A stretch of 64,000 nucleotides of DNA from Cyanophora paradoxa CCMP329 (Eukaryota > Plantae > Glaucophyta): contig QPMI01000472.1 of the NCBI GenBank assembly GCA_004431415.1, positions 1-64,000 on the forward strand, in the 5' to 3' direction. Shown in pieces: positions 25,398 to 52,877 of this stretch. The stretch's first letter is position 1; every line of letters starts with the position of its first letter. The notes beneath the pieces are model-generated. The model was given only the letters and a program-made list of their open reading frames with translations. It searched no databases and was not told where the DNA came from. The translations under genes and the position numbers were made by a program.

Positions 25398-25740
25398 ATG
25401 GATATTACTTCGACCCTCCAACGTCTTTCTCTGAAAGAAGCTCTAACAACCCCAGAAGAAGCCAAGGCGTTCTTCTTGGACAACTCTCTCATGCTTGGTC
25501 TTGAATCCAAGTCGAAGCCAGTTCTTGTTGTTGTGAACCCAAGCAACACTTTTGAGAATAATGCTGGAAATCGCATTTCTTTCAAGCTCCCTCGCTACAA
25601 TTTCTGTGGAAAACTCGAACTTGCGTTTGACCTTCCAGCTGTCACTTTTGCTGGTGATACCGACCTTGTTCGCAATGGATACGTTCGCCCAGTTGGTGCT
25701 CTTGTCTCTCGACTTGAAATCACCTATGGATCTTACACTT
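25398..25740 (+). pseudogene. Major capsid protein of element B, 5' part (split by element C)
   Basis: ISFKLPRYNFCGKLELAFDLP...GALVSRLEITYG double-jelly-roll-type N-terminus. Joined to 52878-53908 it gives an intact 1374-nt (457-aa) frame. Confidence 0.85.
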
Positions 25741-26570
25741 ACACATATGAATATTCATATTTTAATCCCTCGGCGTTCCGCCTCAGGATTAAAATATGAA
25801 TATTCATATGTGTGATTCGATGTTATATCAATAAAATCGATTAATTTATTTGAATTTTCACATGAATTTTCATATTTTTATATGCAATTTCAATTAATTT
25901 AATCGATATTATATCGATAAACTCGATTAATCGATATTGTATCTTAATTGTAGTTAATCGGAATTATATCAATAACTTCGATTGATCTTAATTGAATTCT
26001 AAATGAATCTAATCGGAATTATATCAATAAATTCGATTAAATCATGTTCTTTTCCGATTAAATCAATTAAATATTTAACTTTGTTACCATAAGTGGTCTA
26101 AGTTGACTCACTTTTCATAAACATTTTGAACTCTTAGTCTCCTTGAATTTCTTAAGATGACTCAACTTAGTCAACTTAGTCAACTTTGTTACCATAATCA
26201 ATCAGGGTGGACTCACTTTTAGATCAACTTTGAAATTTCAAGCAAAATCAACTTTGATTTCAAAAGTGGATCTTCTAAGTGGACTCAAAATGTTCACTTT
26301 GTGATACATGTTAGCTCAAATCCTTACTGTTTATGGTCAGGGTTGACTAAGTGGGGGGAGTTGACACATTTTGTGAAATCCTTTTTAGAAAACTTTTGGT
26401 CCCAAATATTTCCTGTGAAATTTGAGTCAACTCAACCCACTTAGTCAACCCTTGCATTGAATTCGTAACAAAATCCATATACTTTTACTACTTTTACGAT
26501 TAATATGAGTCAACCTTGAGTCCACTTAAATATAAATATTATATAATAGGGGGAATCTAGGGCAGATGCT
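25741..26570 (+). repeat. Left TIR of element C (hairpin 25741-25813, ATCGA-rich tract, GTTGACT/GTGGACT iterons)
   Basis: Reverse complement of 52042-52871; identity ends after ...GGCAGATGCT (26570). Confidence 0.96.
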
Positions 26571-26803
26571 GAGTGTTATTGTAAGGAAATCGAATAGTAT
26601 TCGAAATACTTGACATTGCTTAATGTAGGGTGCATTCATATTTCGGCTACATCATACAGTAGAATTCTATTGTAACAAAAGCTACTGTAGAAAGAAAATC
26701 ATTGTAGAAAGCTATTGTAGGAAAGGATATATTATATCCTTTTTTAACGATTGCCATTGTAATAAAAAAGGTAAATTACCCTGTTTATCATTATAGAAAC
26801 CCA

Positions 26804-27202
26804 TCAAAACGGGAATCTATCATGTTTATGTCTCTCAGTCTTCTCAAATGTTAAGAAATTCATTGTTTTATCGATCTCATCTGCAACTGCTTGTGTTTTA
26901 TGCTGAGCTTCTTTACCACAACTGAATATATCAATTGCTAACATGCCTTCATTGGAATAACAATGAGCTGTGCAATGGCTTTCATCTAATAGCAGAACCA
27001 ATGCAAAACCAGGAGGTGATAGTTTGCCATCAAATATCTCACAATGCTTATGAACAATCCTAATACCTTGTCTCAATACTGCTTGTTCAAGGGTTCCCAT
27101 AATCCAATTACCTAGGAAGCTAACATGCTCATAACCTGTTGCTATAGCTGATTTAGCCTTGTAATCAAGCATAACATGAAAGCCTCTGTATTTAGTCTCC
27201 AT
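26804..27202 (-). CDS. speD: S-adenosylmethionine decarboxylase proenzyme (short, prokaryotic type)
   Basis: G.H...D N-terminus and LLLDESHCTAHCY..EG.LAIDIFSCG, with the ESH self-cleavage site and TCG-like Cys motif. Confidence 0.88.
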   Translation of the reverse strand: METKYRGFHVMLDYKAKSAIATGYEHVSFLGNWIMGTLEQAVLRQGIRIVHKHCEIFDGKLSPPGFALVLLLDESHCTAHCYSNEGMLAIDIFSCGKEAQHKTQAVADEIDKTMNFLTFEKTERHKHDRFPF

Positions 27203-27225
27203 TAAGAATACCTTAGAAAAATTAA

Positions 27226-27498
27226 CTAGTCAAACCTAATGCAAATATCCCTATACTCTACTCTGATTGATGAAGTAGCTCTTTTCCTGTGTGCTTGACT
27301 CTTTCTTTTGTTACAGTCCCTGCAACCTGATCCCTTCACATGATTAAAGGGATAGGTAAGGATCACCTTATTACACTGCAAACATCTCACAGATACTTTC
27401 TCTTGAGCTTTGATGTAATGTGTCTCACTGTAATCGAATTTATCTTTACCATGAACTGTCATAGCAGCATCAATAAACTTTTTTGTTTTACTATCCAT
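27226..27498 (-). CDS. Small zinc-ribbon protein (DUF723-like)
   Basis: FI..A..VHG..FDYS...Y.....KV...C..C......P.NH..G.GC..C. Confidence 0.7.
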   Translation of the reverse strand: MDSKTKKFIDAAMTVHGKDKFDYSETHYIKAQEKVSVRCLQCNKVILTYPFNHVKGSGCRDCNKRKSQAHRKRATSSIRVEYRDICIRFD

Positions 27499-27520
27499 AC
27501 TCTATATATAACCAATATTC

Positions 27521-28354
27521 TTATGGAGCAGTATCCTGTCCAAAAATGGGGAAATATCGATTTGTGCCATAATACTCAGCATAGGTATTCTGCCTTGCAA
27601 TAAAATCGGTTCTCTCAGCATATAATACACACTTGTAGATACCAAACTTGGTGGCTCTCACCAGAAACTGATAGTCTTCCAAACCGAAATTGACTCCATG
27701 ATAAGCAATACCAAAATTATCATATGGGGTGATCACAACTGCAAAATTAGGAGTTCCACCCTCTACTTGACATACAGCATATACATCTGGTGGGATATCC
27801 ACAACTACCTTGTAGTGGTCACCAATTTCAACAAGAGAGTCTACTACTGCTGTTTGTTCATTCACAACAATGGGGAATATCTTGATTATATAGGGGGCAT
27901 TCATGCTGGGGACATAGGTTCGAATTCTTGTGTTGGGATCAATGGGATTGGGTTGATCATTCACAAATAAAGGCGCTCCAACAGCCCCACCAACCCTAAG
28001 ACCATCACCAATATAAGCTCCCCCCGATTTGCAGTTAATAGCTCCCGACCTAGATTCAAAAGAATAAGTAGACAGAGGATCTCCATAGCTATCTGGGTCT
28101 CCATAATGAGCAGAAAAGTTTGCATTTGTGACAAGTAGCTTAGTTGTCTTAACTATTCCATTATTTTTATCACATCTGAGTTCCTGTAATCTCAGCTTGT
28201 GGGTGGAACCAAATGTATTCATTGTAGGTTGGACCTCTGTGGATTGGAGACCCTCAACATCATCAAAAGTAGCATGCTGCAGAACATGGTTTGCTGGTGC
28301 AGCTAATGAAAGCTGAGGTGTAATAATTCGTTCAAGTGGGGGTTGCTCAGCCAT
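27521..28354 (-). CDS. Fibre-family protein, conserved N-terminus with variable C-terminus
   Basis: LRLQELRCDKNNGIVKTTKLLVTNA...SGGAYIGDGLRVGG shared with 28378-29262 and 4814-5833. Confidence 0.6.
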   Translation of the reverse strand: MAEQPPLERIITPQLSLAAPANHVLQHATFDDVEGLQSTEVQPTMNTFGSTHKLRLQELRCDKNNGIVKTTKLLVTNANFSAHYGDPDSYGDPLSTYSFESRSGAINCKSGGAYIGDGLRVGGAVGAPLFVNDQPNPIDPNTRIRTYVPSMNAPYIIKIFPIVVNEQTAVVDSLVEIGDHYKVVVDIPPDVYAVCQVEGGTPNFAVVITPYDNFGIAYHGVNFGLEDYQFLVRATKFGIYKCVLYAERTDFIARQNTYAEYYGTNRYFPIFGQDTAP

Positions 28355-28377
28355 TTTACATTAAAGGGATATATCTT

Positions 28378-29223
28378 TTATGGGGTTGGGTCATCAATTA
28401 CATCTGGCTCCATGTAAAACCCTGTAACTGAAAGAGTATCAGGAGTTACACCTCTAAGAGCTGATACAGCGGCTATATCTGTTCTCAAACCGATAAGAGT
28501 TATAGTATATAACCCAATATCTGTAACAAACAAGTCAAAGGTGAAATTATTATTATAAACACAGTAGCCATAACCGAAATGATTATATCCCTGAACATTG
28601 AAATAGTATTTATGACCTACTTGATTGTTGTTGGCTCTACAAAGGGAAAGCATTGCAGATGGAATCGCAAGACCTCTCAGTACTCTTTTGGTTCCTTCAA
28701 TTAATTCCGAGTTTTCAAGAGTAACAGTATATCCAATGTAAAATTGAATTAATGGCTGCTGTGCAACAGGAGTATATAATCGAATTCGTTGGGGGTCTTC
28801 AACATTCTGTTCAAGAGTATCTGGGACATCATTATACGAAATTGAGGATGAAAGCTGACCTGAAACTCTGCAACCTCCACCAATAAAAGCTCCTCCTGAT
28901 CTCACAGTAACAGCAGCAGTATTCTTGTCGAAATCTAGGGCTTTCAGGGCAACACTGTAAGCATCAGGACCTCCATTTGTAGGCTGGAAGAAGTTAGCAT
29001 TGGTGACAAGAAGTCGAGTTGTTTTAACCACACCAGAATTCTTATCAGCTCTCAGCTCTTTAACTCGAATAATCGAATTTTTATCAAAGGAGTTACCATT
29101 GGAGTTGGGTCTCTCTGTGGATTCTAAACCACGAACCTCATCATTTACTTCATGCTGGCGAAAATGCATTGCAGGGGATCCAAGGGAATATATAGGCAGT
29201 TGAACTCGATTATATTCACCCAT
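28378..29223 (-). CDS. Fibre-family protein, tandem paralog
   Basis: IRVKELRADKNSGVVKTTRLLVTNA...SGGAFIGGGCRVSG; ATG at 29223 follows TAGTAAAAG. Confidence 0.6.
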   Translation of the reverse strand: MGEYNRVQLPIYSLGSPAMHFRQHEVNDEVRGLESTERPNSNGNSFDKNSIIRVKELRADKNSGVVKTTRLLVTNANFFQPTNGGPDAYSVALKALDFDKNTAAVTVRSGGAFIGGGCRVSGQLSSSISYNDVPDTLEQNVEDPQRIRLYTPVAQQPLIQFYIGYTVTLENSELIEGTKRVLRGLAIPSAMLSLCRANNNQVGHKYYFNVQGYNHFGYGYCVYNNNFTFDLFVTDIGLYTITLIGLRTDIAAVSALRGVTPDTLSVTGFYMEPDVIDDPTP

Positions 29224-29262
29224 TGCTTCTTTTACTAAGAAGGAAAGAAAAATAAACTGCAA

Positions 29263-29568
29263 TCAAGCCAAAGTGATTAAATTCGATCCAAGGGATTGGT
29301 AAACAGTTGAAAGAACTTGCAGGTTGGATGTCATTGCTTTGATGTTGTTATCACATTCAGTGTATTTAGCAACAGGGTCACCATATGCAGATTTGGCAAG
29401 GACATTAACCAAGAGGTTTTTATACTCATTTACAACTGGTGAGAGCTTGTTAGTTTGCTGAATCGTTTTTTCAACTGTTTGTAATGCGTTTACAAGGGTG
29501 ATTGTGTCAAAAGAAAGCGCAACAGGCTCAGTTGAATAGGTGGTTCCACCAAGAGGATAGGTCGCCAT
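29263..29568 (-). CDS. Hypothetical helical protein
   Basis: 101-aa ORF packed tightly between co-oriented genes. Confidence 0.55.
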   Translation of the reverse strand: MATYPLGGTTYSTEPVALSFDTITLVNALQTVEKTIQQTNKLSPVVNEYKNLLVNVLAKSAYGDPVAKYTECDNNIKAMTSNLQVLSTVYQSLGSNLITLA

Positions 29569-29571
29569 TTA

Positions 29572-32500
29572 TTATACTTTGACATTTTTAATTTGGTCTA
29601 TTTGATCCTGTTGATCTTTGCATTTTTGGGACAACTCCTTCACAGCTTCAATGAGAACTGGAATTAAACCTGTGTATTCAAGAGATAGGTAGCCATCGTC
29701 TTTTTTAACATTAACTACCTCTGGTATTACCTTTTCTACATCTTGCGCAATTAAACCTAATTTCGTTCCATCTTTTTCGCTTCCAATTCGTTTAAAACTC
29801 ACTCCTTCTAATTTTTCGATTGCTGAAAGAGCGCCGGATATCTTTTTAATGTCGGTTTTGTATCTTATGTCACTTCCTTGTGTTAAATAACCTCCAATCC
29901 ACATCCATCCTCCATGATACATGTAACAAATATCAGTATCTTGTTCATTTCGGAATACAAGGGGAATATCTCCCCCTCCTTTCAAATATGTAGAAGTTTG
30001 GTTACCGAAATGGATACGATTATATCCATCACTGGAATTAAACCAAGTCCCCACAGTTCCTGTTAAGATATTTGGTTTACTATAAACGTTATTCCAATGA
30101 ATATAGCCGGTGTGACCACCATAGCTATGCCCAACCCATATTTTCATGTAACTTATACCCATAATGTGAACTCTTCCAATCTTTGGTCTAATTCGAATTG
30201 TGAGAAATCGATTACCAAGATGTATCGGAACATTATTTAAACCACTGTGGTTACCATCAGGCGATGTGGCGTATGGTTGATAACTATTCACTGATGTAAT
30301 AAAAACTTCATTCCCTTGTCTATTAACTCCCCAAATTTCAAAAACTCGTGAGCTTACCCAAGGTAAATAAGTTAAAAATGCTGTTCCTGTCAGGTATCCA
30401 TCGGGTATATCGAAGTCCATCCAAGCGGTAGAAGTTTGGTCATCATATTGATCATTATAGACATATGAACCATAATTATAATATGGATCCCATGATGTCC
30501 CCCAGTGATAGCTCCAACCCTGAGAACATCTATTAAACTCAATTGCTCCTACTGTTTTATCTGCTGTGTGAAACTTTGGGACATCATTACCGTTTATTTG
30601 GAGTTTGGTAGTAGCATTAATAGTGGGTGCTGTAATAGTGTTATTCACCCAAAAGTTACCATTACCATATGATTTTAAGATTGCTGCATCCGCTGAGTTT
30701 CTAAATTCGACAGATACACCATCGCCATTTTCATAGCCTCGAATATATGTAGTTTGACCATTTCCAAACCAAATTCGCTCGACTGCATCTACTGATTTTA
30801 ACCATGCATTTGTTGCCCATGTTGCGGTTTGTGGAAGGTCTGCGGCTGAGTAAAATGATGGTTTACTAAATATATTATCCCAAGAGATCATCCAACCTCA
30901 TTATCTGTTGCCCTCTGTCTACTCCACCCAAAAACACCTGTAAGATGGATTCTACCTTTTCGACCTTGAACATATATTTTTGTGTAAAACTCACAGTTAA
31001 TAGAGATGAAAAGTATACTGGATTGTGTTCCATCATGTACTGATGCTTGAATACCTTGATAAACATTTAAACGCCGAAGGAAATGTTGATTACCATTAGC
31101 TGTTTGACCATAGATGTCAAAATATCTACAATTAGACCAACACATGGTTTGAATATAAAACGTTTTCATTCCTGTGGGGACATTCCACCTCATCCAACAA
31201 GCGCTACAATCTTCATCATTTTGTGGTGTTGTATAACATCCTGTTTGTCCGGTTCTTGGTGTCCATCCTAAGTTCCAATTATTTGCGCTTCTATCTGTCG
31301 AAACCACATCTAATTGGTCGAAATCGTAACCTTTTGGTATTGTGGTTCCACCAATTTGTAAAGTGGTAGCATTCACAGTTCCTGTTACAGTTCCACCTGT
31401 TAGAGGTAAATAATTCCCAAGAGCTGCTGTTAATTCGGTATCTGTTACAACATCTGTAAGAGCTAATTGTAATTCTGTATTTGTTACATAATCTTTGTTT
31501 TCTAAATAATCATCTGTAACAACACCAGAGAGGGTCTCATTGTGTAAGTTTTTTGCTGCCATCCTCTGATTGACTTCTAAGGCTCCTCCTGCTAATGTTT
31601 TAATCCAGGACATTTCGCATTTCCCATAGTTATCTGATGGTTGTCCCACAAGTGGGACATAATTGAATTTGGATCGACTGAATATTATTTTAGGTCTGGA
31701 GCCATCAGTTGCACTGACATCTGTTACATTTACTTGCATAATGGCATCCTTATCATCATATGCTGCTGGATCAGATGGGAGAGGTGGTAATCCTGATGTC
31801 AATGTGATGTCCTCATTATAATAACTTGTTAAGAAGATGCCTGGTTTGGTATCAATCACCCCAACACCACCTGCTGAAATCATTTGGATTCTTGTTGGTT
31901 GTTTGATGTATAATTCACCTTCCATTGTGGTCCCTGCATCAATGCCTTTTCGATTGACATAATAATCATTTAGTTGTAGCCTTTCAGGTATGGTATTACT
32001 CTGGTAGAGACTCACACCATTTGTAAAGTCTGTCAAAATATTGCCTGATGATGCAAAAGTTGGTTGTTCATCTATTTGACTCCAAGGGTGTCTGTGGTTG
32101 CTATTGGTTATTGTTGAGTAATCATGAGTGTGTGAATCAGGTGGGAAGGTTAATGGAGGATTTGTGATATGCTCCCATAAATGAGTATGGGCGAAATCTG
32201 TGATCTGATCTTTGGTGTGAGTATGGGCAAAATCTGTGATCTGATCTTTGGTGTGAGTATGGGCGAAATCTGTGATCTGATCTTTGGTGTGAGTATGGGC
32301 AAAATCTGTGATCTGATCTTTGGTGTGAGTATGGGCGAAATCTGTGATCTGATCTTTTGTGTGAGTATGGGCGAAATCTGTTATTTGGTCTTTTGTGTGA
32401 GTATGGGCGAAATCTGTTATTTGGTCTTTTGTGTGAGTATGGGCGAAATCTGTTATTTGGTCTTTTGTGTGAGTATGGGCAAAATCTGTAATCTGGGCTT

Positions 32501-35500
32501 TTGTGTGAGTGTGATTTTGAATCCAACCTTGAACCACATTAGAGGTTGGATGATGTGGTAAATTTGCATTGCTTGTAACTGTAAGGTAATCTATTACAGT
32601 ATCAGGTGAGGTTATTTTTAATCCTCTGTAAATATTCAGAGTCTGGGTATGAGTGAATCCATATTTTTGTTGAATGTAATACCTCACAGCATTCTTTTCA
32701 GAAGTTGTCAAAGCCCTATTGAAAACAATCAACTCGGAAATACCACCATTCACAATATTACCAAATCCGAAATGATTGACAGTATTATCTGGTAGATAAT
32801 TTGTTCCTACAAGTGTTTCAATATCTACTCCATTTAACCCGACTGTGTAGCTGCTGGAAGTAATTGTTTGGTCAGTGTAATACCATGTATTTATTAAAGA
32901 AGGAACCGTAATAACTGGGCGGTTTTGGGATGCTCCATTAATAGTGAACTGGTTCATTCCAATAGCAGTAGAAGATGTTGCCCCATAATAACAATATCGT
33001 GATGGAAAGGCGCTTCTGTAAAGTCTCAAGTGAACTTGCATAGAAGAGGCAGTTGGATGATATTTTCCCACAAAGAAAAATGTAAGCCCATTTGAGAAAT
33101 CAATAGTTCTTGTAGCAGAGGTATATGCATAAAAAGTGCCTGTTGGGCTTGAAACACTAACTTGGTTGTTGATTTCGGGATTGGTGTAATAGGAACTGGC
33201 TCCGGAGATAAACAAGTCTGGAACAACTGAATTCGGGACTCTGCTTACTATAGTTGTATACATTGCTGATTGACCTGGTACTCCTGATGCCTTCCAAGCA
33301 AAAATGCAGTTCGAGATATTTGATGCTGGATCAAAGCTTGGTGGGACATCATACCATTCTTCGTAAACCTGATTCATGGTATTGAAATTGCAAGAGCCAA
33401 TTGTGAGGATTCCATTTACTTTCAAATTGCTGGTCTCTATATTGCTACTGTAAATATTACTATTAACTGTGAGGTTTCCTGTGATTGTCCCACCACAAGA
33501 GGGAGATATTTGGATAGTTCTGCTGCAAGTTCAGCTTCTGTAATAAATTGATCAAGCATAGCAAGGGTTACAAAATTAACAAGGATTACTGCAGTAAGGT
33601 AATCCTCTGTGACCACTCTCGAAATATTTTCGTTGTGTATGTTTTTTGCAGCCATCCTCTGATTGGCTTCCAGAACCCCACCATAATCTGTTTTAATCCA
33701 TGCAAGCTCTGCCCTCCCATAATTATCATTTGCAGTTCCCACTATGGGAATGTAGGAATATTTATCTCTGCTGAATACTATCATTGGTCTTGAGCCATCT
33801 AAACTGCTTACATCTGCTACATGAACCTGTATAGCAGAGTTGAAATTTTGGTAGGTTGCTGGGTCTGTTGGGACTCTGAATGTATCTGTGGGAATGTCAG
33901 CCTCCATGTAGCTTGACACAAAGATATTTGGTATGGTTGCTCCTGGTTCAGGTGGTGGATCATAAGAGCCTGGTAATGTCCTAATATGAAGTGGTCCTCT
34001 CATAGCTGAATTTGCAAGTGTCCCATTCACATGTACATAGTGTTCATTCAAAAAGATTCTTTCAGGGACATTACAAGTCTGATAAAGAGAAACCCCCAGG
34101 GTTGCCAAAGGCTCCACCTTTGCAAATTCTGGTTGGTCATTGATCTCATCCCAAGTATGTTCATGTTTGCTTGGTGGGAACTCAGTTGGAATCCCATCAA
34201 TTTCTCCCCAATCATGTCTGTGATCCTCTGGTGGATATTTCTCTGGTTTCCCTAAGATCTCATCCCAATCATGATTGTGATCCTCTGGGGATACTTTGCA
34301 GGTTTATTATTAATTTGTTCATAATCAGGAAAGAACTCCCAGATCTCAGGTCGAAATCCATCTGGTAATAATTCCTCATGGGGTTCATAAGGTTGCTCAT
34401 AATCAACAGCTGGTGGATCATGCCCATCTGGCAAATACTCCTCATCAGGTTCATAGTTCTGCTCATACTCAAACTCTTGGGGATCTAAGCCATCTGGTAG
34501 TATCTCCTCCTCATTGGGGTCATACTGATCATATTCATATTCTTGTGGGTCAAAACCATCTGGTAAATACTCTTCCTCATCTGGAACGAATTGATATTCA
34601 TCAAGCTCTAATATATCGACTTCAGGAGGTAAATACTGCTCATCTATTTGCTTTCTTGGTTCAATTATAGGTTTATTGCGAACTTGCTCCCAACTAACAA
34701 TGTGTTGCCCAAAAGGAACTGTCTCATCTGCTGTGTACTCTCTGCCTGGTTGCTTTTTCGGTGTTAAATCCGGTGGATCCCATGGAAGAGGGAAGGGAAC
34801 TGGGACAGGTCCATAATACTCAAAGATCTCTCTTATGGTCTTCTCACTTACAAGCTTCTCACCATTTGCATACACATTGCTGCCATGGATATTTCGCCAT
34901 TGCCTGGTTCGAATTCCAAGGTCTTTCACATTGCTATACAAAGGCAAAAGGTGCCTATCCATTTCAACAAGATCAGGATGTAAATGGATTGCTACTGGCT
35001 GACTGGGGCTACTGTTGATTGTAATTGATGGCTTTTTTTGATGGACATCTTTTGGAGTAAAGAACCCAAAAGGCTCATTCCTCGCAAAGTCATATGTTAT
35101 ATCCTTGGGATAGACATCATTTGTGTAGGAGACCTGATTTGTGTTGGCAATGGGACCCACTTGCAATACTTGGGGGACCTCAGCTTTTGCAGTGCTGCCC
35201 TCATTGTAAATTCGCAAACCTGTGTTCTGTTTGCCCTGCTCATCTTGAACATTGAAAATCAATCGACCACTATCAAACCTGGAAGGTATATCTGGATGAG
35301 TGCCACTGGTTTTGAGTTTCCTAGGTCTCCTTCTTGTTGCTTTGATCTCTGCCACTTGGTTTGCTTTCACATTACCCAAGCTAAAAGCTACACTGACTTC
35401 CTCCTTATCTGGATCGGTTTGATTCACAGATAAAGCATGCTCCCTTGATTGAGTCTTGGATGAATTATCGGAACTGTGGTCAATCGAAACTGAACCCTTT

Positions 35501-35589
35501 ACTTTAATATTATCAAAGTTCACATGCTTGGTGCTGCTTGCATTATCATCTTGAATGGTTTCTAGATTGGGTGGGTAATTGAAGCTCAT
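29572..35589 (-). CDS. Giant (~2000 aa) fibre protein with C-terminal intramolecular chaperone (peptidase S74), split into four ORFs
   Basis: ORFs 34252-35589, 33437-34117, 30888-33425 and 29572-30891 join with one added base at each break. It contains acidic repeats, HxH repeats, a LamG-like domain (GGISELIVFNRALT..E) and SDIRYK.DI...LGLIAQDVE...Y.GLIPVLIEAVKEL. Confidence 0.75.
32181..32513 (-). repeat. 36-bp coding tandem repeat, 9 copies (HTHTKDQITDFA)
   Basis: Visible in both DNA and translation. Confidence 0.95.
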
Positions 35590-35632
35590 GGCTTTTACTA
35601 TATGGATTTATAAAATTCCTGATAAGTAAAAG

Positions 35633-42195: not shown

Positions 42196-42468
42196 ATGGA
42201 CATAATACGAAAGTTCTTCGAGATGTTCAGTCTGCATGTGGTGAGCAATTGCCACAGTGGATGTTGTGAGACAACAGTGGAGTTTGAGATGTCAGATAAT
42301 GAGGATAATGCCTCAGAAGCAAGAGAGAGAAGGAGGTCTACAGTTTCTGTGGAGTCAATGCCAGCAGACCCCACAGAGTATACATATGAGCAACAGGAGT
42401 ATCCAAGGAGAAGTTCTCTGTCAGCAGAAAACGTTTTCTCTGGGAATATAAATGGAGGATACTATTAG
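42196..42468 (+). CDS. Small protein with amphipathic N-terminus and CHSGCC motif
   Basis: MDIIRKFFEMFSLHVVSNCHSGCC matches 55544-55777. Confidence 0.65.
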   Translation: MDIIRKFFEMFSLHVVSNCHSGCCETTVEFEMSDNEDNASEARERRRSTVSVESMPADPTEYTYEQQEYPRRSSLSAENVFSGNINGGYY

Positions 42469-42697
42469 TTTAATCGAGTTTACCAGTGATGAACCTGTTA
42501 CTGAGGGGTCTATAAGACACATTCTGGCAATGCAGAAACGATATAGAGATGACCCAGCCTATAGAGAGTATAAAAAGCAGCAAGCCTTGGCATCCTATTA
42601 TCGAAGAAAAGCCCAAAAAGAGGAGCAGAGACCCAGAGGGAGACCGATTAAATATTATTTGCCTACTGATAGTAGCAATGGACCCCCAGGTCTATAA
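42452..42697 (+). CDS. Small basic AT-hook protein
   Basis: QKRY..D..YRE..K..AL..YYRRK...RPRGRP. Confidence 0.65.
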   Translation: MEDTISLIEFTSDEPVTEGSIRHILAMQKRYRDDPAYREYKKQQALASYYRRKAQKEEQRPRGRPIKYYLPTDSSNGPPGL

Positions 42698-42849
42698 GAT
42701 AATCGAGAAAAAGCGGTCTCAGTATGCCACTGAGGCAGCTATAAAAGTTTACAGACAGGAACTGGTGTTCGCAACAAAAAATGACTTAAAGAAAAAGTAG
42801 ATAGGTTGTATTGAGGAAAAATTATTTTCGTATCTACTATTAAAGAGAA

Positions 42850-43176
42850 ATGCCGAATATCCGCAAGATACTCACAGATGATGAAAAAGCAGAGAAGCTG
42901 AGACTGAAAAGGGAGCAAGATGCCCAAAGAAAACGCGAAGCCTATCATAAAAAGAAGGAGGAACGATTATCCCAAGGAGCCGCTACAGTTCACACACCAG
43001 AAGAACTCAAAAAGATTGCCCTCAGACACCAGAGGAAATACAGGGAAAATGAAGAATATCGCGAGCAGAAAAAGGCAAAAGCGCTGGAATATTACCACAA
43101 GAAGAAAGATGAACAGCCCAAGAAACCCAAAGAGCATAAACCGGTTGGAAGACCTCGGAAATATATCGAAGAATAA
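42850..43176 (+). CDS. Small basic AT-hook protein, paralog
   Basis: YREQKKAKALEYYHKKK...KPVGRPRKY. Confidence 0.7.
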   Translation: MPNIRKILTDDEKAEKLRLKREQDAQRKREAYHKKKEERLSQGAATVHTPEELKKIALRHQRKYRENEEYREQKKAKALEYYHKKKDEQPKKPKEHKPVGRPRKYIEE

Positions 43177-43394
43177 ATTCTCGATCGAAACAAATTTTGT
43201 AGAAATCGATTTGATCGGAGGCAAAAAAATGACAGCTTTCTTCCCTCTTTTTTAAAACTGTACCTATATATCGAGACAGTATCCCGACCCAAAACTACTT
43301 AAGGACTTGGCAAATAATAGGATATATATAAAAGACAATTCCTCCTTCCGAAATTATTTTCTTTGTTAAAGGTAGAAGTCCCCCAAAATCGAAA

Positions 43395-45987
43395 ATGAAC
43401 AAAATCGAGAAATTCGCCACCCCTGTTGAAAATGCTACATTCCTTAGTACTCTCATTGGTGATCGCAACAAGGTCACCCATGTATTTGATTCTGCTGAAG
43501 ATGCCCTTGAAGCAATTGATAATAGCAAGGTCAAGACCTGGGCTGAATGCATTCAGCCTGAACAAGTGACCAGAGTTTACCTGGACCTGGATAAATTCGC
43601 TGATTTGAAGGAGAATATTGCTGATAACTATGCTGAGGCTGAAACTGTTGTAAGAGAGATGAGAGATAAGCTATGGAAGCGATCTGGGACCACTTCGATT
43701 AACGATATTGCTGTTGCAGTTCGCCATAGAAGGGTTTATTTGATCAAGGAGGATGTCACCAAGTTCAAGATCTCAGCCCACTTTATCATTAAGTCGCTTG
43801 CATGCAAACATGAAGATATCCCAAGCTTTTCAAAGCTATGGGATTGGTGAAAAATGAGGATTATGACAGTGGAGTTTACAGCTCCACACAGAACCTTATC
43901 TGCCTCAATTGCTGCAAAGGTGAGACTCTGGATGCTCAAAATAAATCAAAGAAAGATGTTGATAAAAACGTTTGCTTTAAGAAATTCGTTGACTGTGACA
44001 AAGTGTTAATGCGAAATGAGGACTTCTTTGTATCTTTCTTCTCAGCTTCTACTAAACTTGTGGATGAATCGAATATTTCTGCATTCGCAAATTATAGCCC
44101 TGAGCCAAAACCAGTTAAAAGGAGCCAAAAAGTGATAAAGTGAAGACTGAGAAGGTAGAAGCTGAAAAAGACACTGAACCCGAAAACCCTGTTACTTTCG
44201 AACTGCTACAAAGTGTTATAATGGGTCTGAATGGTGAGAGAGCTAATGAGTATAAAACTTGGATTGATGTAGGACTGGTCATCATCAATGTTGGGGAAGA
44301 CAACAAGTTCACCCCTAAAATGCAAGCTGAACTCTTCCACCAATTCTCAGAACAGAGTGACAAGTATGATTATGATGAATGCCAGGAGAAGTTTACACAG
44401 CTTCGCAGAAGCAAGAAGAAGGCTGAGCCTGGCAAAGTGTTGACCTTCAAATCCTTGGTTTATTGGTTGAGCAAAGATAACAATGAGCTTTTCAAGGAAC
44501 TCTTCCCCAAAAAGTATGCATTCCTACCAGAGGACACAGATGAAATCGATTACAAGACTGCAAGTATCCCTCCTTTGGCTGAACATTACAATGTGCATAA
44601 GAGGTATTTCAATGCTCGCATGCATCATGTTGAAAATGTTGGTTGTGTGATGCTCTGGGATGAACAACTACTTTGCTGGATGCCCAAAGATATTGGGAAG
44701 CTCTCTACAAAGCATTTCCCCCACTTGATGCATAAGGTGATTGTGAATGAGGGGACAGATAATGAGAAAGAGAAATGGGAGCAATCATTTAGGAAATGGA
44801 TTGTGGATCCCACAGCCACAAGATCTACTTATATGGATTTCCTCCCACCTCCTGCTACTCTCAGTGCCAAATGCAAGTCTGTATTTAATCTCTATCCAGG
44901 AATGAAGGTCGACCATCAGCAATTCGAAAATGCCCCAGAGGATGTAACTGCTGAGATGATTAAGCCTTTCCTAGATCACCTGTTCTTAATGTCTGGTGAG
45001 GATCAAAATACCTATGAATATCTGTTGAAATGGTTTGCCCACATGCTGCAAAAGCCTGGGGAACTCAATGGAGTATCCTTAATCTTCATTGGTGAGCAGG
45101 GAACTGGTAAAAATGTGTTGGTTGATACTTTCCAAAAGAAGATACTTGGAGATGCCCTAAGTTATGCAACTGGAAAGCCAAAAGAGGATCTGTTTGGTCG
45201 ATTTGCCCACAATAGAGAGGATAAGATCTTGATTGTTGTCAATGAAGCCTCAGGCAAGGACACATTCGAAAATAATGATATGCTTAAGGATCTCATAACT
45301 TCTGATAAGATTGTAATTGAACACAAAGGGATAGATTCATACACAAAAAGCAACTTTGCCAGGATTATATTTACCAGCAATAATAACATTCCAGTGAAAA
45401 TTGAAGCTGGAGATAGGCGATTTGTGGTTGTTGAAGTTAGTAAGAAATTCGCAAAGGATAGGTCATACTTCCTTCCACTTGTAAAATGGCTTAATGATCA
45501 CTGCAATATTCGAAACATTGCCCACTATTTGAGAACCAAAGTTGACTGTGAGGATGTGAACTGGATTGCTGATAGACCCCTTACAAATAAATACTATTTA
45601 GCCCAGCAGGTATGCGCCCCAATCATTCTTATGTTCACTAAGTGGCTTGTGGATCGAGGCTTAATTTCCGAGAATAAATGCAAGTCTGGTAGCCTTGTGG
45701 AAACCTGGAAGTGGTTCCAGGAGTTCATTACCAGCAACAAATATAAAAACGATTATAATAGTCGCAGATATTATACTGAAATGAGAAGTGTTACATATAT
45801 TCAAGTGAAAACTACAAATGGCAAACAATACTATCATTTCCTATTCCCACAAGTATTTGAGGAATTCAGAAAGATGAAGCTTGTAGATGATGAGACTATT
45901 GAGGAAGAAGCTAATCCAAGGATGAAACAGGACCTACCTGCTGCTGATCCTGATGCATCAGATTATGATTCTGATGTTGAAGTTTAG
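43395..45987 (+). CDS. AEP primase - PriCT-2 - SF3 helicase, element C (three ORFs, two frameshifts)
   Basis: RVYLDLD, KISAH, D.GVYS..Q; Y.TWIDVG...FHQFS..S.KYD..EC; Walker A GEQGTGKN, VVNE, IFTSNN, DRRF. Confidence 0.85.
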
Positions 45988-46180
45988 GTTTACTCAAAAG
46001 TGGACTCATGGTTGACTCAAATTTATCATAAAAGACCCAAACAGTCTTTTATTTATGGTTTATTTATCGATTAGGTTGACTAAGTGGGGGGAGTTGACTC
46101 ATTTTTTCACAGATTCTAAAAAAGGACTCTGCCCTAAAAAGAAATAAAAAGTGCCTCAACTCCACCCACTAAGTCAACCA
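45988..46180. promoter_or_regulatory. Putative replication origin directly downstream of the helicase (GTTGACT / AT-rich / AGTCAAC)
   Basis: 46074-46180 resembles TIR segment 26341-26450 (GGTTGACTAAGTGGGGGGAGTTGAC...ACCCACT.AGTCAACC). Confidence 0.6.
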
Positions 46181-46230
46181 AAAAATGATTTAAGAGATAG
46201 AAAAATATATTTATATGTAAGTAGTAAGAA

Positions 46231-46581
46231 ATGGCTGGAACAGATCATGATTCTGGATCGATCTATATGATTGAGAGTCAGGAAATGAACAAAATCTACA
46301 TAGGGAGAACCTCACAGCCACTACACAAAAGATGGAGACAACACAAATCAGGTGAAATGAAATCCACAGCAGACCTATGCAAGGCTGCTGATGTCAAGTT
46401 TTCAGTCTTGTATTCAAGCAAGAATGGTGGGCATGAAGACCTAATGAACAGAGAAGCATATTACATGTATCTGTTTGAACCTTGGATAGTCAATTTACAA
46501 AAACCGAAATCAAGATTTAGAATTAATCGGTTTTTGCGATTCCATTCAGAGGAAGCCAATGGATCCATTAAAACATTTTAA
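46231..46581 (+). CDS. GIY-YIG endonuclease
   Basis: GSIY...IYIGRT...L..R..QH...RE..Y...VN. Confidence 0.85.
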   Translation: MAGTDHDSGSIYMIESQEMNKIYIGRTSQPLHKRWRQHKSGEMKSTADLCKAADVKFSVLYSSKNGGHEDLMNREAYYMYLFEPWIVNLQKPKSRFRINRFLRFHSEEANGSIKTF

Positions 46582-46642
46582 AAATGCGTTTAGAACATCC
46601 TAAAATAAAATATCCCCTTAGAATAGGAACAAGTTAGGAATA

Positions 46643-49600
46643 ATGCCCCGAATTACCAACAAACTCATAAGGGAGAAGAAATGGGAACTCATGGGATTGC
46701 TGGGAACACTATATGCAGCCCATGAAATAACAGAGGCTGAATATGACCGGGAAATAGATTTAATTGCAAAGGGTAGACCCACTTTAGCCAGATTAACCAG
46801 AAAAGCAAATAACCTATATGATAAAATTGAAACCTTGGATGAACTGGATCGCCTAAGGCAAATAGAACCTGAGGCAGAAGATGGAACAGCCATGAATGAA
46901 TTATATCGCTGGCTCACTTACAGAGCCAGAAGGGAAGTTGTTGTAGATGTGATTGAATTCCTGGACAGAATTGCTACATCCCTTCCTAATCGATTAAAGC
47001 AGGGTTTAGATCAATTCAGGGCAATCAAGGTTCGCTTGTCTTTTATCTGCAAGTTCGTAAAAGTAAGCAATCCGCAGGTTTGGATATCGAAATACATTTA
47101 CAGCGATTATTTTGTACTAACCAGATCGAGAAATATTCGAACTGAGCTGAATAAAGCAGCCCAAATATGCCAGGAGCAGATGAATGTGGTTGATAGCTAT
47201 CGCTTAGAAAGAATTGAAATACTCAGAGTGGCTATTATGAGTTATGCTCCAACTGGTGGATGCTTTCTACAAACCCCAGAGTGGATTGCTAGGAAGAGAG
47301 CCACAGTGAATATTCGAAATATTGATGATTCCTGCTTCGAAAATGCAATTTTGGCATATATTCACAGAAAAGCGATAAACTCCCATAAGAGGAATGAGCT
47401 TTCACAATATCGCAAATGGAAATACTCAGCAATCGCTTATAATCCGCTGGCTCTCAATTTCGACAATATCCCATTCCCTGTTGCCTGTGATGCTGAAATA
47501 ATTGATAAATTCGAGGCTCAAAATGCAGGCATTAGCATTAATATATTTGGAATCGATGGAGAGGTTATTTATCCCCTGCATCAATCAAGTAACCCAGGCA
47601 GAAAGCATAAGGTTAATCTCATGCTGATATTTGATGATGAAGGGAATGGTCACTATATTACAATCATGTCCCTTTCAAGGCTATTGAAAGTAAACCATGA
47701 AACATACAATGATCAGAAGTTACACTACTGTGACACATGCTTATCTCGATTCAGGTCTGAGGCTAAACTCACTGCTCATGTGGACTCAAACAGATGCATT
47801 GATTGGAGACTCTCAAAGGGAATCACACCTAAACCTGAAACCACCATAGAGTTTGGATTGAAAAACCTCAGGAAAACTGTCTGGCTTCCTGTTGTGGTCT
47901 ACTGCAAGATTGAACATAGAAGCATCCCCATTGATGCATCGAAATCTAAGAGGGAAGTTTCAGCAGTCAACCTTAGAATAGTCACTGGGGCAGATGTTCA
48001 AGATTTTCGATTTGAGGGGCAGGATCCAATGGGAGATCTGTTTGAATGCTTGGAATCCAAAGCAAGAGAGCTGATCGATTTCCTGTTTACCAATATTCCC
48101 ATGAATGAACTCACAGATGAGCAGAAAGCAATTTACAAGGCTACTAAACACTGTTACCTTTGCAGTGAGAGGTTCACCAAAGAGAACTTCAAATGCAGGG
48201 ATCATGATCATCACACAGGCAATTATATTGCTCCTGCATGCAGAAACTGCAATCTCCATAGGAGAATCTCAAAGCAAACCAAAGTTGCAGTGGTTGTTGA
48301 CCAAATGGATGACTGTGGGACATTCATTTTCAGAAAAATAGCAGGCATGGGTGATAAAAAGCGAATCGAAATCCTTTCGAAAAACTTTGATCAATACCTT
48401 TCATTGCAATGGGGTCTTTACAAGTTCATTGATGCAAGCAATTTCATGGATTTCGGAGCTGCTGATGTGACTGAGTTAATGAACAAATTCCAGGCTTTTA
48501 GAAGGCTTTCACACTCAGTATATGGACTTGACCCAGTTCATTATGTATCTGCACCTGGGCTATCTTGGGATGCTATGTTAAGGACCACCAAGGCAAAAAT
48601 AGAGCTTATAAGTGATGTAGAGCAATACGAATTTGTTGAGAGGGGAATCAGGGGTGGCTTTGCAACAATGCCTTGTAGGTATGCTGAGGCTGATGGTGAG
48701 AACTCCCATATTATGCTGTTTGATGCTAACAACTTGTATGGCTACTGTTTGAGTCAGCCAATCCCAGTTGGTGATTTTAGATGGGAGACCGAATTCAACC
48801 CACAAGATAACAGATCCAGTTTCCTAGAAGTTGATCTGGATTACCCAATTAGGCTGTTTCTAGATCACAGTGATTTTCCCCTAATTATTAACAAGAAAAT
48901 AGTAGAATATGCAGAATTATCACAATATCAAAAAAGCCTATTGGATCTCTCAGGAGAAGAGCTTGATAAAACCCCTAAGCTAACTGCAACCTTTGGTTCT
49001 GTGACCAACTATGTAGTTTCTGAGCCTCTTCTACAATACATGTTAGCTAAAGGTGTGAAACTAAAGAAGGTTCACAGGGTCCTATCATTTACTGTGGCTC
49101 CTGTAATGAAACCCTACATTGAGCTGAATACTGATATGAGAAGGAAAGCAGTGAATAAATTCGAGGCTGATTTCTATAAGCTCATGAATAATTCAATCTA
49201 TGGGAAATGCATTGAATCATGTAGAGGTCGATCTGTGGTTAAGATTGCCAACACTGAGAAGCTATTTATGAAATATGCAGCTTCCCCATTGGTGAAATCA
49301 ACAAGTCCCATAAGTGAAAGGGCAGTTGCCTTTGAGTTTTACACAAAACATGTGAAGCTAGATAAGCCTGTTGCTATTGGGGCTTATGTTTTGGATACTG
49401 CCAAACTGCATAACTACAAGTTCTTCTATGATACTGTAAGGTCCCAGTGGGCAAAAGCAAAGTTACTATTCCATGATACTGATTCCTTTTGTCTATATAT
49501 CGAATCTCAGACCCTCCAAAAAGACCTAGAGAATATATCCTTTAATCTGGACTTAGGGGGATCTAACAGAATGACCCCAGGTAAATACAAAAATGAGATG

Positions 49601-49888
49601 CCAGGTTCTGCTATATTGGAGTATGTAGGTCTGAGAGCCAAAGTTTACAGTTTCAGAACTGCTGAGATTGAGAGAAGTAAGCTATCTGGGACTTCCACTG
49701 AGGAACTCCAATTCAATGATTTTAAGGAGTGTTTATTTGCAGGTATCAGCAAGACTGTGACTGCAAAGCAGAAAAGAAGGGCAGATCACACAATAATAGA
49801 TACTGTGAGTAGAAGGGTTGCCCTAAACTGCTTTGATGCAAAGAGATACATCTTACCAGATGGTATTAATTCTGTTCCTTTTAATTAA
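46643..49888 (+). CDS. Protein-primed-type family B DNA polymerase, element C
   Basis: DANNLYG, KLMNNSIYGK, HDTDS, K.KNE, GLRAKVY; N-terminal OTU-like DDSCF...GHY and EndoVII-like C..C...RDHDH.TG....AC..CN. Confidence 0.93.
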   Translation: MPRITNKLIREKKWELMGLLGTLYAAHEITEAEYDREIDLIAKGRPTLARLTRKANNLYDKIETLDELDRLRQIEPEAEDGTAMNELYRWLTYRARREVVVDVIEFLDRIATSLPNRLKQGLDQFRAIKVRLSFICKFVKVSNPQVWISKYIYSDYFVLTRSRNIRTELNKAAQICQEQMNVVDSYRLERIEILRVAIMSYAPTGGCFLQTPEWIARKRATVNIRNIDDSCFENAILAYIHRKAINSHKRNELSQYRKWKYSAIAYNPLALNFDNIPFPVACDAEIIDKFEAQNAGISINIFGIDGEVIYPLHQSSNPGRKHKVNLMLIFDDEGNGHYITIMSLSRLLKVNHETYNDQKLHYCDTCLSRFRSEAKLTAHVDSNRCIDWRLSKGITPKPETTIEFGLKNLRKTVWLPVVVYCKIEHRSIPIDASKSKREVSAVNLRIVTGADVQDFRFEGQDPMGDLFECLESKARELIDFLFTNIPMNELTDEQKAIYKATKHCYLCSERFTKENFKCRDHDHHTGNYIAPACRNCNLHRRISKQTKVAVVVDQMDDCGTFIFRKIAGMGDKKRIEILSKNFDQYLSLQWGLYKFIDASNFMDFGAADVTELMNKFQAFRRLSHSVYGLDPVHYVSAPGLSWDAMLRTTKAKIELISDVEQYEFVERGIRGGFATMPCRYAEADGENSHIMLFDANNLYGYCLSQPIPVGDFRWETEFNPQDNRSSFLEVDLDYPIRLFLDHSDFPLIINKKIVEYAELSQYQKSLLDLSGEELDKTPKLTATFGSVTNYVVSEPLLQYMLAKGVKLKKVHRVLSFTVAPVMKPYIELNTDMRRKAVNKFEADFYKLMNNSIYGKCIESCRGRSVVKIANTEKLFMKYAASPLVKSTSPISERAVAFEFYTKHVKLDKPVAIGAYVLDTAKLHNYKFFYDTVRSQWAKAKLLFHDTDSFCLYIESQTLQKDLENISFNLDLGGSNRMTPGKYKNEMPGSAILEYVGLRAKVYSFRTAEIERSKLSGTSTEELQFNDFKECLFAGISKTVTAKQKRRADHTIIDTVSRRVALNCFDAKRYILPDGINSVPFN

Positions 49889-49891
49889 GAG

Positions 49892-51277
49892 ATGCCAGCA
49901 ACTGGAAGAATAGTAAGGAGAACCACTGAGCAACTGCAAGGTAACCTACTGCCTATCACAGTTCCAAAGGAGGAAAAAGGGGAATCTCGAATTGTCAAAA
50001 AGTCTGAGATGAAAGAGCTTGTCCCAGTAGAGATCCCAGTTGCTATTGCAGTGAAAGAAACTAGCAAGATTGCCAAGAGATTCTATGATGTGAGAACTGG
50101 TTACAAAGGGCTTCAAGCTATGAGGGCTGAGTTACCAGATGAATCCTATAAGCAGTTGCAAGAGTTCTATAAAAAGCAAGAGGTAGTTCAGATCAATGCA
50201 CCTGCTATATCTAGGAAGAGAGATCCCATGGTCCCAATAAGGCAACCCCTTGATACCTATGTGATTGATTTGCTCTTTTTCCCAGCTTATAAGAAACAAA
50301 ACAATGGCTATGATACCTTTATGACTGCAATGGAATCAACACTGAGAACTGGGTATATCATACCTATAAGGGATAAATCAGCTCTCACTACATTAGCTGC
50401 ATTTAAACAGCTTGAGATGAGAGTAGCAAGACCCATAGTAAAAGTTCAATCAGATGCTGGAAGTGAGTTCCAAAATCGAATATTCCAGGAGTATTTATCT
50501 AGTAAATACATAGAACACCAAGTGAGTGGAACTGCTGACCACAGAAGCCAAGGTCGAATTGAAGCCTTTAACAAACAGATTAAGAGATTGATTACAAACT
50601 ACTGCATAGCCAATAATACAGCTAGATTCTTTGATGTGTTAGGTGATATTGAGTATAATTACAATAATACAGTTCACTCAGCTACTAAGATGAAGCCAGG
50701 CGAAACTACAGAGGAGCATTATAGGTATATAGTGGGATTAGAAGATGAAAGATTCAAGAAATCAATAGCTTACCTTGATACCATGCAGCCTGGCATGTTT
50801 GTTAGAGTGAAAGTTGAGAAAAATCCCTTTGCTAAACAGGGTAACAATTGGTCTAGGATGGTTTACACTGTTGATAGTAGGGAAGGCTTTAAGTTTAAGC
50901 TAAGGAGTCCCACTGGTGAGATCATAGAAAACAGGTTTGCTTTCCATGAGCTGTTGCCTGTGAATGCAGTTGAATATCTAGAAACCCCTACAGTGGATGC
51001 CTTAGAGCAAGCCAAGGAGGAAGCCAGGGTTGATGCTGCTATAAGGAGAGAAGGCATAGAAGCTGCTAATGAAGTCCCAGATAAGCCTTTGATAGAGGCT
51101 AGAAAGGAGAAGGCTGGGAAAGTTAACAGGGAACTCAAAAAGCTCACTATAGCAGGGACACAGAAACTTTCTGAGGTTAATAGCCAGAGATGGTATAATG
51201 ACTTTCAGACTACTAAGGAGTCATATACAGCCCCTAAACCTCAGAGAACACTAAGAGAAAGGACCAAAACTAGCTAG
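49892..51277 (+). CDS. Retroviral-type (rve) DDE integrase, element C
   Basis: VIDL, SDAGSEF, IEAFNKQIK, YNNTVHSATKMKP. Confidence 0.93.
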   Translation: MPATGRIVRRTTEQLQGNLLPITVPKEEKGESRIVKKSEMKELVPVEIPVAIAVKETSKIAKRFYDVRTGYKGLQAMRAELPDESYKQLQEFYKKQEVVQINAPAISRKRDPMVPIRQPLDTYVIDLLFFPAYKKQNNGYDTFMTAMESTLRTGYIIPIRDKSALTTLAAFKQLEMRVARPIVKVQSDAGSEFQNRIFQEYLSSKYIEHQVSGTADHRSQGRIEAFNKQIKRLITNYCIANNTARFFDVLGDIEYNYNNTVHSATKMKPGETTEEHYRYIVGLEDERFKKSIAYLDTMQPGMFVRVKVEKNPFAKQGNNWSRMVYTVDSREGFKFKLRSPTGEIIENRFAFHELLPVNAVEYLETPTVDALEQAKEEARVDAAIRREGIEAANEVPDKPLIEARKEKAGKVNRELKKLTIAGTQKLSEVNSQRWYNDFQTTKESYTAPKPQRTLRERTKTS

Positions 51278-51533
51278 TTTGCTAGGCGAAAACTCGTTTT
51301 TTCCAAATATATGTATGACTGATATACATATATGCACATGATATACACATAGTCTTGTAGATCTTATCAAGCGCTTCACAGCGATATGCAGAACGTTGCG
51401 TTTTGATGATCTGGTGATGAGATATAACAGTTTGAAGATGCCGATTATCGATTTTTCAAAATTTCGGCGAGATTTCTAAAATGATGCATCATAATGATGT
51501 AATAATAATGATGCATCATAAACATATAATTAT

Positions 51534-51761
51534 GTCACCGGTGACTTTATTTGTCACCGATGACTTAATTTATTTGTGTGATTGTGTCACCAGTGACTTT
51601 AATTTGTCACAGGTGACTCTATTTTTTTTGTGATTGTGTCACCAGTGACTTAATTCCTTGTGTGATTTTGTCACCGGTGAGTTTAATTTGTCACCGATGA
51701 CTTTAATTTGTCACCGGTGAGTTTAATTTGTCACCGATGACTTTAATTTGTCACCGGTGAC
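51534..51761. repeat. Array of ten GTCACCGGTGAC-type palindromes
   Basis: Starts at 51534, 51553, 51586, 51606, 51638, 51670, 51690, 51710, 51730 and 51750. Confidence 0.9.
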
Positions 51762-52041
51762 TTATGATTATTATTATTAATATATATATATATACATAAC
51801 AACAATGACGACATCGCCGTCATCGTCATGATCTCCCGAGTCACATGGTGTGTCATATATATCATATACATACGTCAAATCATGATGACGTCATTGAATG
51901 AAACCCCATACAAAACACTAAAACGCATGTATCTCTTCACCAACTCATCATCTGACAAAAACAAAAACAGATTCGGAATCCTCTTAACGAGGCCTGCGTG
52001 ACGATGTAAGTATCATAGGCTCAATAATTCATTAATTTGTA

Positions 52042-52871
52042 AGCATCTGCCCTAGATTCCCCCTATTATATAATATTTATATTTAAGTGGACTCAAGGTT
52101 GACTCATATTAATCGTAAAAGTAGTAAAAGTATATGGATTTTGTTACGAATTCAATGCAAGGGTTGACTAAGTGGGTTGAGTTGACTCAAATTTCACAGG
52201 AAATATTTGGGACCAAAAGTTTTCTAAAAAGGATTTCACAAAATGTGTCAACTCCCCCCACTTAGTCAACCCTGACCATAAACAGTAAGGATTTGAGCTA
52301 ACATGTATCACAAAGTGAACATTTTGAGTCCACTTAGAAGATCCACTTTTGAAATCAAAGTTGATTTTGCTTGAAATTTCAAAGTTGATCTAAAAGTGAG
52401 TCCACCCTGATTGATTATGGTAACAAAGTTGACTAAGTTGACTAAGTTGAGTCATCTTAAGAAATTCAAGGAGACTAAGAGTTCAAAATGTTTATGAAAA
52501 GTGAGTCAACTTAGACCACTTATGGTAACAAAGTTAAATATTTAATTGATTTAATCGGAAAAGAACATGATTTAATCGAATTTATTGATATAATTCCGAT
52601 TAGATTCATTTAGAATTCAATTAAGATCAATCGAAGTTATTGATATAATTCCGATTAACTACAATTAAGATACAATATCGATTAATCGAGTTTATCGATA
52701 TAATATCGATTAAATTAATTGAAATTGCATATAAAAATATGAAAATTCATGTGAAAATTCAAATAAATTAATCGATTTTATTGATATAACATCGAATCAC
52801 ACATATGAATATTCATATTTTAATCCTGAGGCGGAACGCCGAGGGATTAAAATATGAATATTCATATGTGT
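52042..52871 (-). repeat. Right TIR of element C (hairpin 52799-52871)
   Basis: Reverse complement of 25741-26570. Confidence 0.96.
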
Positions 52872-52877
52872 ACACTT

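Follow-up and report, generated by a model that had tools for sequence, protein, structure and literature searches.

Introduction

Polintons/Mavericks are described as having terminal inverted repeats (TIRs), a 6-bp target site duplication (TSD), a retroviral-type (rve) integrase, a family-B DNA polymerase, an A32 ATPase and a double jelly-roll major capsid protein (MCP) (PMC11161782). Two elements with features of this kind, here called B and C, are found in a 64,000-nucleotide stretch of DNA from the glaucophyte Cyanophora paradoxa CCMP329 (assembly GCA_004431415.1, contig QPMI01000472.1, positions 1 to 64,000 of the forward strand; hereafter the window). Element C lies inside the MCP gene of element B, and it is this nested arrangement that we analyze here. 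Unlike Polintons/Mavericks, both elements have a separate primase-helicase, a divergent MCP that falls in a cluster marked 'new', and ACAC hairpin ends. Furthermore, no adenovirus-type maturation protease was recognized among the 43 open reading frames (ORFs) or ORF pieces scanned against Pfam, although a divergent or frameshifted protease could escape such a scan. Protein priming in Polintons/Mavericks goes with terminal-protein and vOTU domains on the polymerase. In the strict sense, Polinton-like viruses (PLVs) are mostly devoid of pPolB and the rve integrase (PMC11161782), whereas both genes are present in B and in C. The two elements would thus count as PLV-like only by their divergent capsid, helicase and fibers.

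The closest precedent for such nesting comes from Halocafeteria seosinensis, in which 5 PLVs and 9 virophages among 77 elements are likewise whole elements, with TIRs and TSDs, that reside within other elements (bioRxiv 10.64898/2026.07.28.741278). Virus-in-virus nesting, insertion hotspots and the safe-harbor idea are already stated in that preprint, which also describes terminal palindromes next to the TSD and swapped replication modules, both of which have parallels here. The Halocafeteria elements differ in belonging to another host lineage and another capsid group, and landing in a capsid gene is not mentioned in the available part of the preprint. In addition, the Halocafeteria palindromes are mostly on elements that lack pPolB, whereas those described below are on PolB-bearing elements.

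Insertion into the viral genes of a resident element has also been reported for Ngaro and other retrotransposons in virophages and PLVs (PMC8547959, PMC12220804), where trans-complementation is discussed as unlikely but possible. The Ngaro type 1 invader is a retrotransposon with a real preference for virus (91%), whereas the invader at this locus is a sister virus for which no preference is shown. Endogenous MCP-bearing elements are known from C. paradoxa itself, and the patatin-discoidin fusions and tail-repeat fibers reported for glaucophyte PLVs (PMC10120064; PMC12220804) likewise occur here. Adintovirus-like proteins have also been mentioned in this alga (PMC8502044). The main text of PMC10120064 makes no mention of nesting (there are no matches to 'nested'), and neither this locus nor a capsid-gene nest was found described in the literature, although Table S5 of that study may list the locus. 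Similarly, the literature, including PMC10748475, yielded nothing on DUF5901 or on polymerases of this type in elements with hairpin ends.

A full-length element inside the capsid gene of another

Element C spans 27,131 bp between its inverted repeats (25741..52871, + strand). Its left TIR (25741..26570, + strand) opens with a 73-nt hairpin with 28-bp arms, and the same sequence forms the right TIR (52042..52871, - strand). When the two repeats are read inward from 25741 and 52871, there are 0 mismatches over 830 bp. The element is flanked directly by two copies of the hexamer ACACTT (25735..25740 and 52872..52877, both + strand). The 5′ half of the B MCP gene (25398..25740, + strand) runs up to C as an open frame that comprises 114 codons and one further base, and the 3′ half (52878..53908, + strand) resumes in the matching frame and reaches a stop at 53908. 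Together, the two pieces make 457 codons that are in register across C.

A sequence-only reading of the window had proposed that removal of 25741-52871 together with one ACACTT would restore an intact 457-aa MCP. This reconstruction is borne out, because the coordinates are exact, the frames match, and the two pieces tile a related protein (see below). The matching 830-bp repeats noted in that reading are indeed perfectly identical. A 6-bp duplication at exactly both ends would be expected by chance about 1 time in 4000, and the in-frame fit is not yet counted in this figure. Other C-type copies diverge in their flanks at the next base (loose ends at 52797 and 52799). An alternative boundary, TACAC..GTGTA with a 4-bp TSD, was rejected, because ACAC..GTGT is backed by other copies and by the end of a third element in the window, element A. 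In the sequence, then, C is nested inside the capsid gene of B: the inner element is whole, carries its own TSD, and lies within the sequence of the outer element.

That the interrupted gene encodes a double jelly-roll MCP is indicated by homology. The two B pieces tile the intact 456-aa C. paradoxa protein P0001 end to end, with 68% (5′) and 57-58% (3′) identity, and P0001 is the sole MCP relative among candidates of nearly the same length. This protein matches Capsid_N/Capsid_NCLDV clusters with a score of 0.98, a match of low recognition value, and it is listed in the supplement of PMC10120064 as an MCP confirmed by HHpred (98.5%). The same study includes a C. paradoxa MCP whose N-terminus is nearly equal to those of the B and C proteins. 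The cluster match of P0001 and the published HHpred result together assign the B and C capsid proteins to the double jelly-roll class at the level of sequence. Just 6 proteins match the B MCP at E<=0.001 among 1.84 billion representatives, and one of these six is a probable repeat artifact that was excluded from alignments. No relatives of the B MCP were found in viral or metagenome contigs, and a PDB sequence search with the MCP alignment returned nothing below E=0.9. The predicted fold of P0001 (predicted local distance difference test, pLDDT, of 38) is too poor to use.

The locus in short-read data

The stretch is present in 20 of 24 listed public sequencing runs, with no RNA runs among the listed holders, and four of these runs (X1, X6, X7 and X11) were compared, all as short-read contigs. 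The junction between host DNA and B is covered in all four by a contig (21400-21986) that shows no difference and reaches 29 letters into B. Four letters of the TIR (25887, 25908, 25998 and 26255), which are the same in both TIRs, depart from the majority short-read contig in each of these runs. Moreover, both TSD copies carry one common letter that is absent from the uninterrupted sister contig. Because these private letters are common to both TIRs and to both TSD copies, the two ends of C reflect one event. Sister copies could have contributed to a mosaic interior of C, which would leave the nest unaffected.

Over 21400-31400, the short-read contigs add a base at 8 places, 7 of which lengthen a C or G run, whereas the unique host DNA in the same interval shows no difference. 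A polishing failure of the assembly that matches this C/G-run artifact is described in section 7 of PMC10120064, and the scattered frameshifts in B and C are therefore likely to be unpolished long-read errors. This bears on the earlier description of C as complete. The element is full length with a perfect set of TIRs and TSD, but as assembled it has two single-base frameshifts in its MCP gene and more in other genes. Given the fit to the published polishing failure, completeness is likely true in the cell, though not in the assembly.

Relationship, age and abundance of the two elements

B and C share a gene order that comprises a minor capsid candidate, the MCP, the A32 ATPase, the family-B polymerase with an endonuclease-VII-like insert, and the rve integrase. 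The amino-acid identity between the two is 95% and 88% for the B MCP pieces, 90% for the ATPase, 76% for the integrase and 60-62% for the polymerase. Judged from these comparisons, B and C are relatives and not copies of each other, because their primase-helicases, which occupy the same position, do not cross-match, because their terminal repeats differ, as do their repeated motifs, and because B lacks an 11-kb block that C carries. This block consists of fiber-like genes, a patatin-discoidin lipase and a SAM (S-adenosylmethionine) decarboxylase, and it is missing from B between the left end (21958) and the capsid module (25398). Within the window B is 14.9 kb long, compared with 27.1 kb for C, and the B+C composite exceeds 42 kb.

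Relative to majority contigs, 18 of the 22 phased substitutions in B are at third codon positions (P=4e-6), where the 22 are all the phaseable substitutions in B genes among 40 of 104 rows of differences; the third-position count becomes 19 if a gap from one run is included. Real pseudogene decay of B was rejected on the basis of these codon positions, and B appears instead to have diverged under selection as a working virus, with no neutral decay. Because B is undecayed and the TIRs of C are identical, the insertion of C should be recent. The sequence-only reading had also described a recent event in an undecayed target, and on both counts these data agree with it.

Both families are abundant. 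The depth of the B MCP 3′ half relative to a single-copy host contig is 35, 72, 61 and 37 in runs X1, X6, X7 and X11, respectively, and the halved depth of the C ends is 36, 55, 75 and 37. These ratios come from single contigs, are rough, and are probably inflated where GC-rich DNA is under-read; each family roughly comprises 35 or more copies. In X7, the sole run where this is measurable, an uninterrupted B-type contig over the target site has 82% of the B MCP depth, which amounts to some 50 times the depth of single-copy DNA. Such uninterrupted sister copies are not distinguishable from an empty allele at precisely this locus.

How the nest may have formed

We consider it probable that a full-length Polinton-type element, C, was placed recently, by its own retroviral-type integrase and with a 6-bp TSD, at an essentially non-specific site that happened to be in the capsid gene of the older resident relative B. 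The linear C genome would have been joined to the target through a 6-bp staggered cut made by this integrase, as the known chemistry of rve integrases suggests (PMC12220804). Such a site would have been struck because elements of this kind make up several percent of the genome; landing in a resident element would cost the host nothing, and the insertion would hence persist. Thereafter, capsid production from this B copy would have ceased, and the copy would be replicated only as part of an oversize B+C composite, which likely makes it an immobilized dead end. C keeps both of its ends and is likely still mobilizable.

The expectations under random landing can be approximated from published counts. 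Table S4 of PMC10120064 gives 366 MCP hits for the 99.9 Mb of C. paradoxa, equal to about 7.3% of the genome, with clusters marked 'new'. Random landing of 366 elements of 20 kb would yield about 13 nests, with 0.9 expected inside an MCP gene, and both values rise if host genes are off limits, to as many as about 40 nests and 3 MCP hits where 30% of host DNA tolerates insertions. The nest itself is most likely a recent and unremarkable insertion by chance, such as has already been described in other protists.

Several observations weigh against this account. The chance estimate rests on the published C. paradoxa count; with only the two measured families (70-150 elements), the chance of any landing in an MCP gene is 3-14%. 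Of the 77 elements in the Halocafeteria preprint, 14 are nested, compared with 2.4 expected under uniform landing by our own calculation, so that at least in that organism resident viruses are favored to some degree, whether through selection or through preference. The sample of flanks at other C-type ends, discussed below, consists of the five flanks listed, from a table with 11 further loose-end rows, and this small sample is skewed towards long unique (host) contigs. The target hexamer ACACTT and C's own end ACACAT are equal at 5 of 6 bases, a resemblance that was noticed post hoc, that is not seen in the flanks of A and B, and that is probably due to chance. On the side of the assembly, no contig with 31 letters on both sides of a B/C junction is found among the pieces listed (32 of 6397 and 32 of 297). 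Lastly, the frameshifts in the C MCP were checked against reads only indirectly, by a C-type contig in run X1 that spans the first shift without a gap row.

The lack of a bridging contig among the pieces listed, the visibly unpolished state of the region and the presence of about 35 or more near-identical C-type copies could point to repeats of a high-copy family that joined unrelated loci in the assembly. We regard such a chimera as highly improbable, because it would not yield a matching 6-bp TSD, one gene continuing in frame and private letters common to both ends. A biological alternative is that the two elements are competitors or a helper-satellite pair, such that C-type elements disable the capsid gene of their smaller rivals of the B type, or that C capsids carry B along. 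Cross-packaging within one genome is conceivable given MCPs that are 88-95% identical and ATPases that are 90% identical, and C has the 11-kb fiber and lipase block that B lacks. The dominance of the uninterrupted contig in X7 indicates that the site is no recurrent target, however, and the homologous site in C's own MCP differs solely in the last two bases of the hexamer. The differing terminal repeats and repeated motifs and the size of the composite also speak against such a pairing, and homology-guided targeting is not known for rve integrases. The sequence-only reading had stated that this B copy has lost its capsid gene while keeping replication and integration genes, and this is supported by the interrupted MCP gene together with intact polymerase and integrase motifs. 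As for its further proposal that B could be packaged in trans by the similar MCP of C, a dependence on the capsid of C is not supported, given that uninterrupted sister B MCPs are abundant, that the C MCP is itself frameshifted as assembled, and that copying of B from end to end now requires a composite of >42 kb, compared with 27 kb for C. Nor is the B-type family one without its own capsid, as a helper-dependent satellite would be, since the uninterrupted B-type MCP contig is present at about 50 times single-copy depth. Because such contigs dominate in X7, B-type capsid should be obtainable from the sisters of B, and the obstacle for this B copy would be its length rather than capsid supply. 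Overall, competition or a helper-satellite relationship is a very unlikely explanation of the nest.

It is also possible, though we judge it unlikely, that DNA of resident viruses (AT-rich islands or their chromatin) is actively preferred by the integrase as a safe harbor, and that the capsid gene was struck incidentally. Three elements lie within 64 kb, and the authors of the Halocafeteria study, in which nests are some six times as frequent as uniform landing would give, call viral sequences hotspots (bioRxiv 10.64898/2026.07.28.741278). That excess vanishes only if about one-fifth of the host DNA tolerates insertions (our calculation), and Cafeteria virophages are reported to integrate without sequence specificity (PMC8547959). 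At this locus, A and B are in host DNA of 83% and 59% GC, and the target of C has 43-47% GC, which is above the element average of 39-42%. In all five cases listed (hand count), the DNA next to other C-type ends has 57-77% GC, compared with 39% for C, although this is the biased sample mentioned above. A preference for AT-rich targets was accordingly not seen locally, and the earlier suggestion that AT-rich islands may be targeted is not supported at this locus. The companion notion of a safe harbor is plausible as tolerance, which has already been proposed in print, whereas its targeting component is unsupported. A broader proposal would combine these ideas: viruses would preferentially land in resident sister proviruses, larger fiber-bearing C-like elements would overwrite smaller fiber-less B-like ones, and the intact copies of the latter would borrow C-type entry proteins, which amounts to a network of competition and complementation in one alga. 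This proposal is quite doubtful at present. Tolerance of a non-specific landing, without targeting, is the simplest reading of the nest.

Gene content and ends of the elements

The window holds three AT-rich islands with 39-42% GC in host DNA of 64% GC. The left part of B (21958..25740, + strand) starts with a drop in GC and the terminus ACACATAT, and comprises the host junction, a terminal hairpin, two frameshifted genes and the MCP 5′ half. The first of these genes (23382..24305, - strand) is conserved, adjoins the capsid module and is homologous to C 37188-38135. It has several single-base frameshifts in the assembly, and the short-read contigs add a base at six positions, of which one is seen in just a single run. 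The second (24334..25343, + strand), a candidate minor capsid gene beside the MCP, has one frameshift and 80% DNA identity to C 38140-39150. The right part of B (53971..64000, + strand), whose terminus is beyond the window, encodes an A32 ATPase (53971-54753; PF04665), a frameshifted primase-helicase with a weak D5_N match (56394-58784), a PolB with intact motifs and no PF03175 match (59419-62700), and an integrase that runs from 62866 to the window end (PF00665 E=1.4e-3, below the curated cut-off), in which the D, D and E motifs are present. The primase-helicase of B has an N-terminal motif that may resemble those of PolA-type primase-polymerases.

In C, the accessory block (26804..37189) has no counterpart at the matching place in B, as judged by Pfam and by a blank blastn comparison with B. 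Its fiber-like genes include a Peptidase_S74 chaperone and tail repeats, and its patatin lipase is fused to an F5/8 discoidin domain. The candidate minor capsid gene at 38140-39150 adjoins the MCP and matches unnamed viral clusters in which DUF5901 occurs in 13% of members, a resemblance to DUF5901-type clusters that is a lead only. The MCP gene of C (39203..40568, + strand) is in three reading frames in the assembly, with single-base losses, relative to B, in C runs near 39577 and 39720. It is followed by an A32-like packaging ATPase (40628..41410, + strand; PF04665 E=3.4e-12), a frameshifted primase-helicase with PriCT-2 and DUF5906/D5-like regions that has no similarity to that of B (43332..45987, + strand), and, upstream of the polymerase, a free-standing GIY-YIG endonuclease gene (46231-46581). 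A GIY-YIG gene was not recognized among the ORFs of B. The family-B polymerase (46643..49888, + strand; PF03175 E=8.4e-13) has intact motifs and an endonuclease-VII-like insert (PF02945 E=4e-4, below cut-off). No homologs were found at E<=1e-10, and its structure as predicted from the single sequence (pLDDT 32) is too poor to use. The rve integrase (49892..51277, + strand; PF00665 E=1.4e-4, below the curated cut-off) has the D, D and E motifs.

Elements A, B and C each terminate in a perfect hairpin whose arms measure exactly 28 bp (A, 7545-7615; B, 21958..22053; C, 25741-25813 and 52799-52871). What these hairpins have in common is limited to ACACATAT at the tip, ATCC next to the loop and a few bases, such that length and symmetry are conserved and sequence is not. 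The loop orientation is equal at both ends of C, and an unbroken contig of run X6 (52798-52843) is a weak hint against mixed hairpin orientations. An inverted internal copy of the element's own terminal repeat is present just upstream of the polymerase region in B (58831-59051 vs 22744-22965) and in C (45998-46179 vs 26341-26527), and these copies are candidates for a promoter or an origin.

Element A, whose right end occupies the AT-rich island at 1-7615, represents a third family with its own terminal repeats rich in CACCCCACC. It has fiber-like genes that are weakly similar to C 28843-29196, and a C1q-like match. Between A and B, a 6-kb host segment (8729-14723) has at its borders inverted repeats that begin with GGTGAATTACCGGCCA, and another copy of the repeat, the third, lies at 16140. 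It contains an intron-containing gene that is F-box/leucine-rich-repeat-like by eye, and the segment is possibly a DNA transposon carrying a gene.

Biological implications

The nest shows how protist genomes accumulate and silently disable endogenous DNA viruses, and it sets the time order of two families, with B before C. It also calls for caution, because true disruptions by nesting and frameshifts from sequencing are lumped together when capsid genes are counted, or elements are called 'degraded', in genomes of this type. Where hundreds of such elements occur in one genome, there is a good opportunity to test whether nesting reflects chance, tolerance or targeting. If targeting were true, virus-versus-virus conflict would be added to the proposed antiviral role of these elements.

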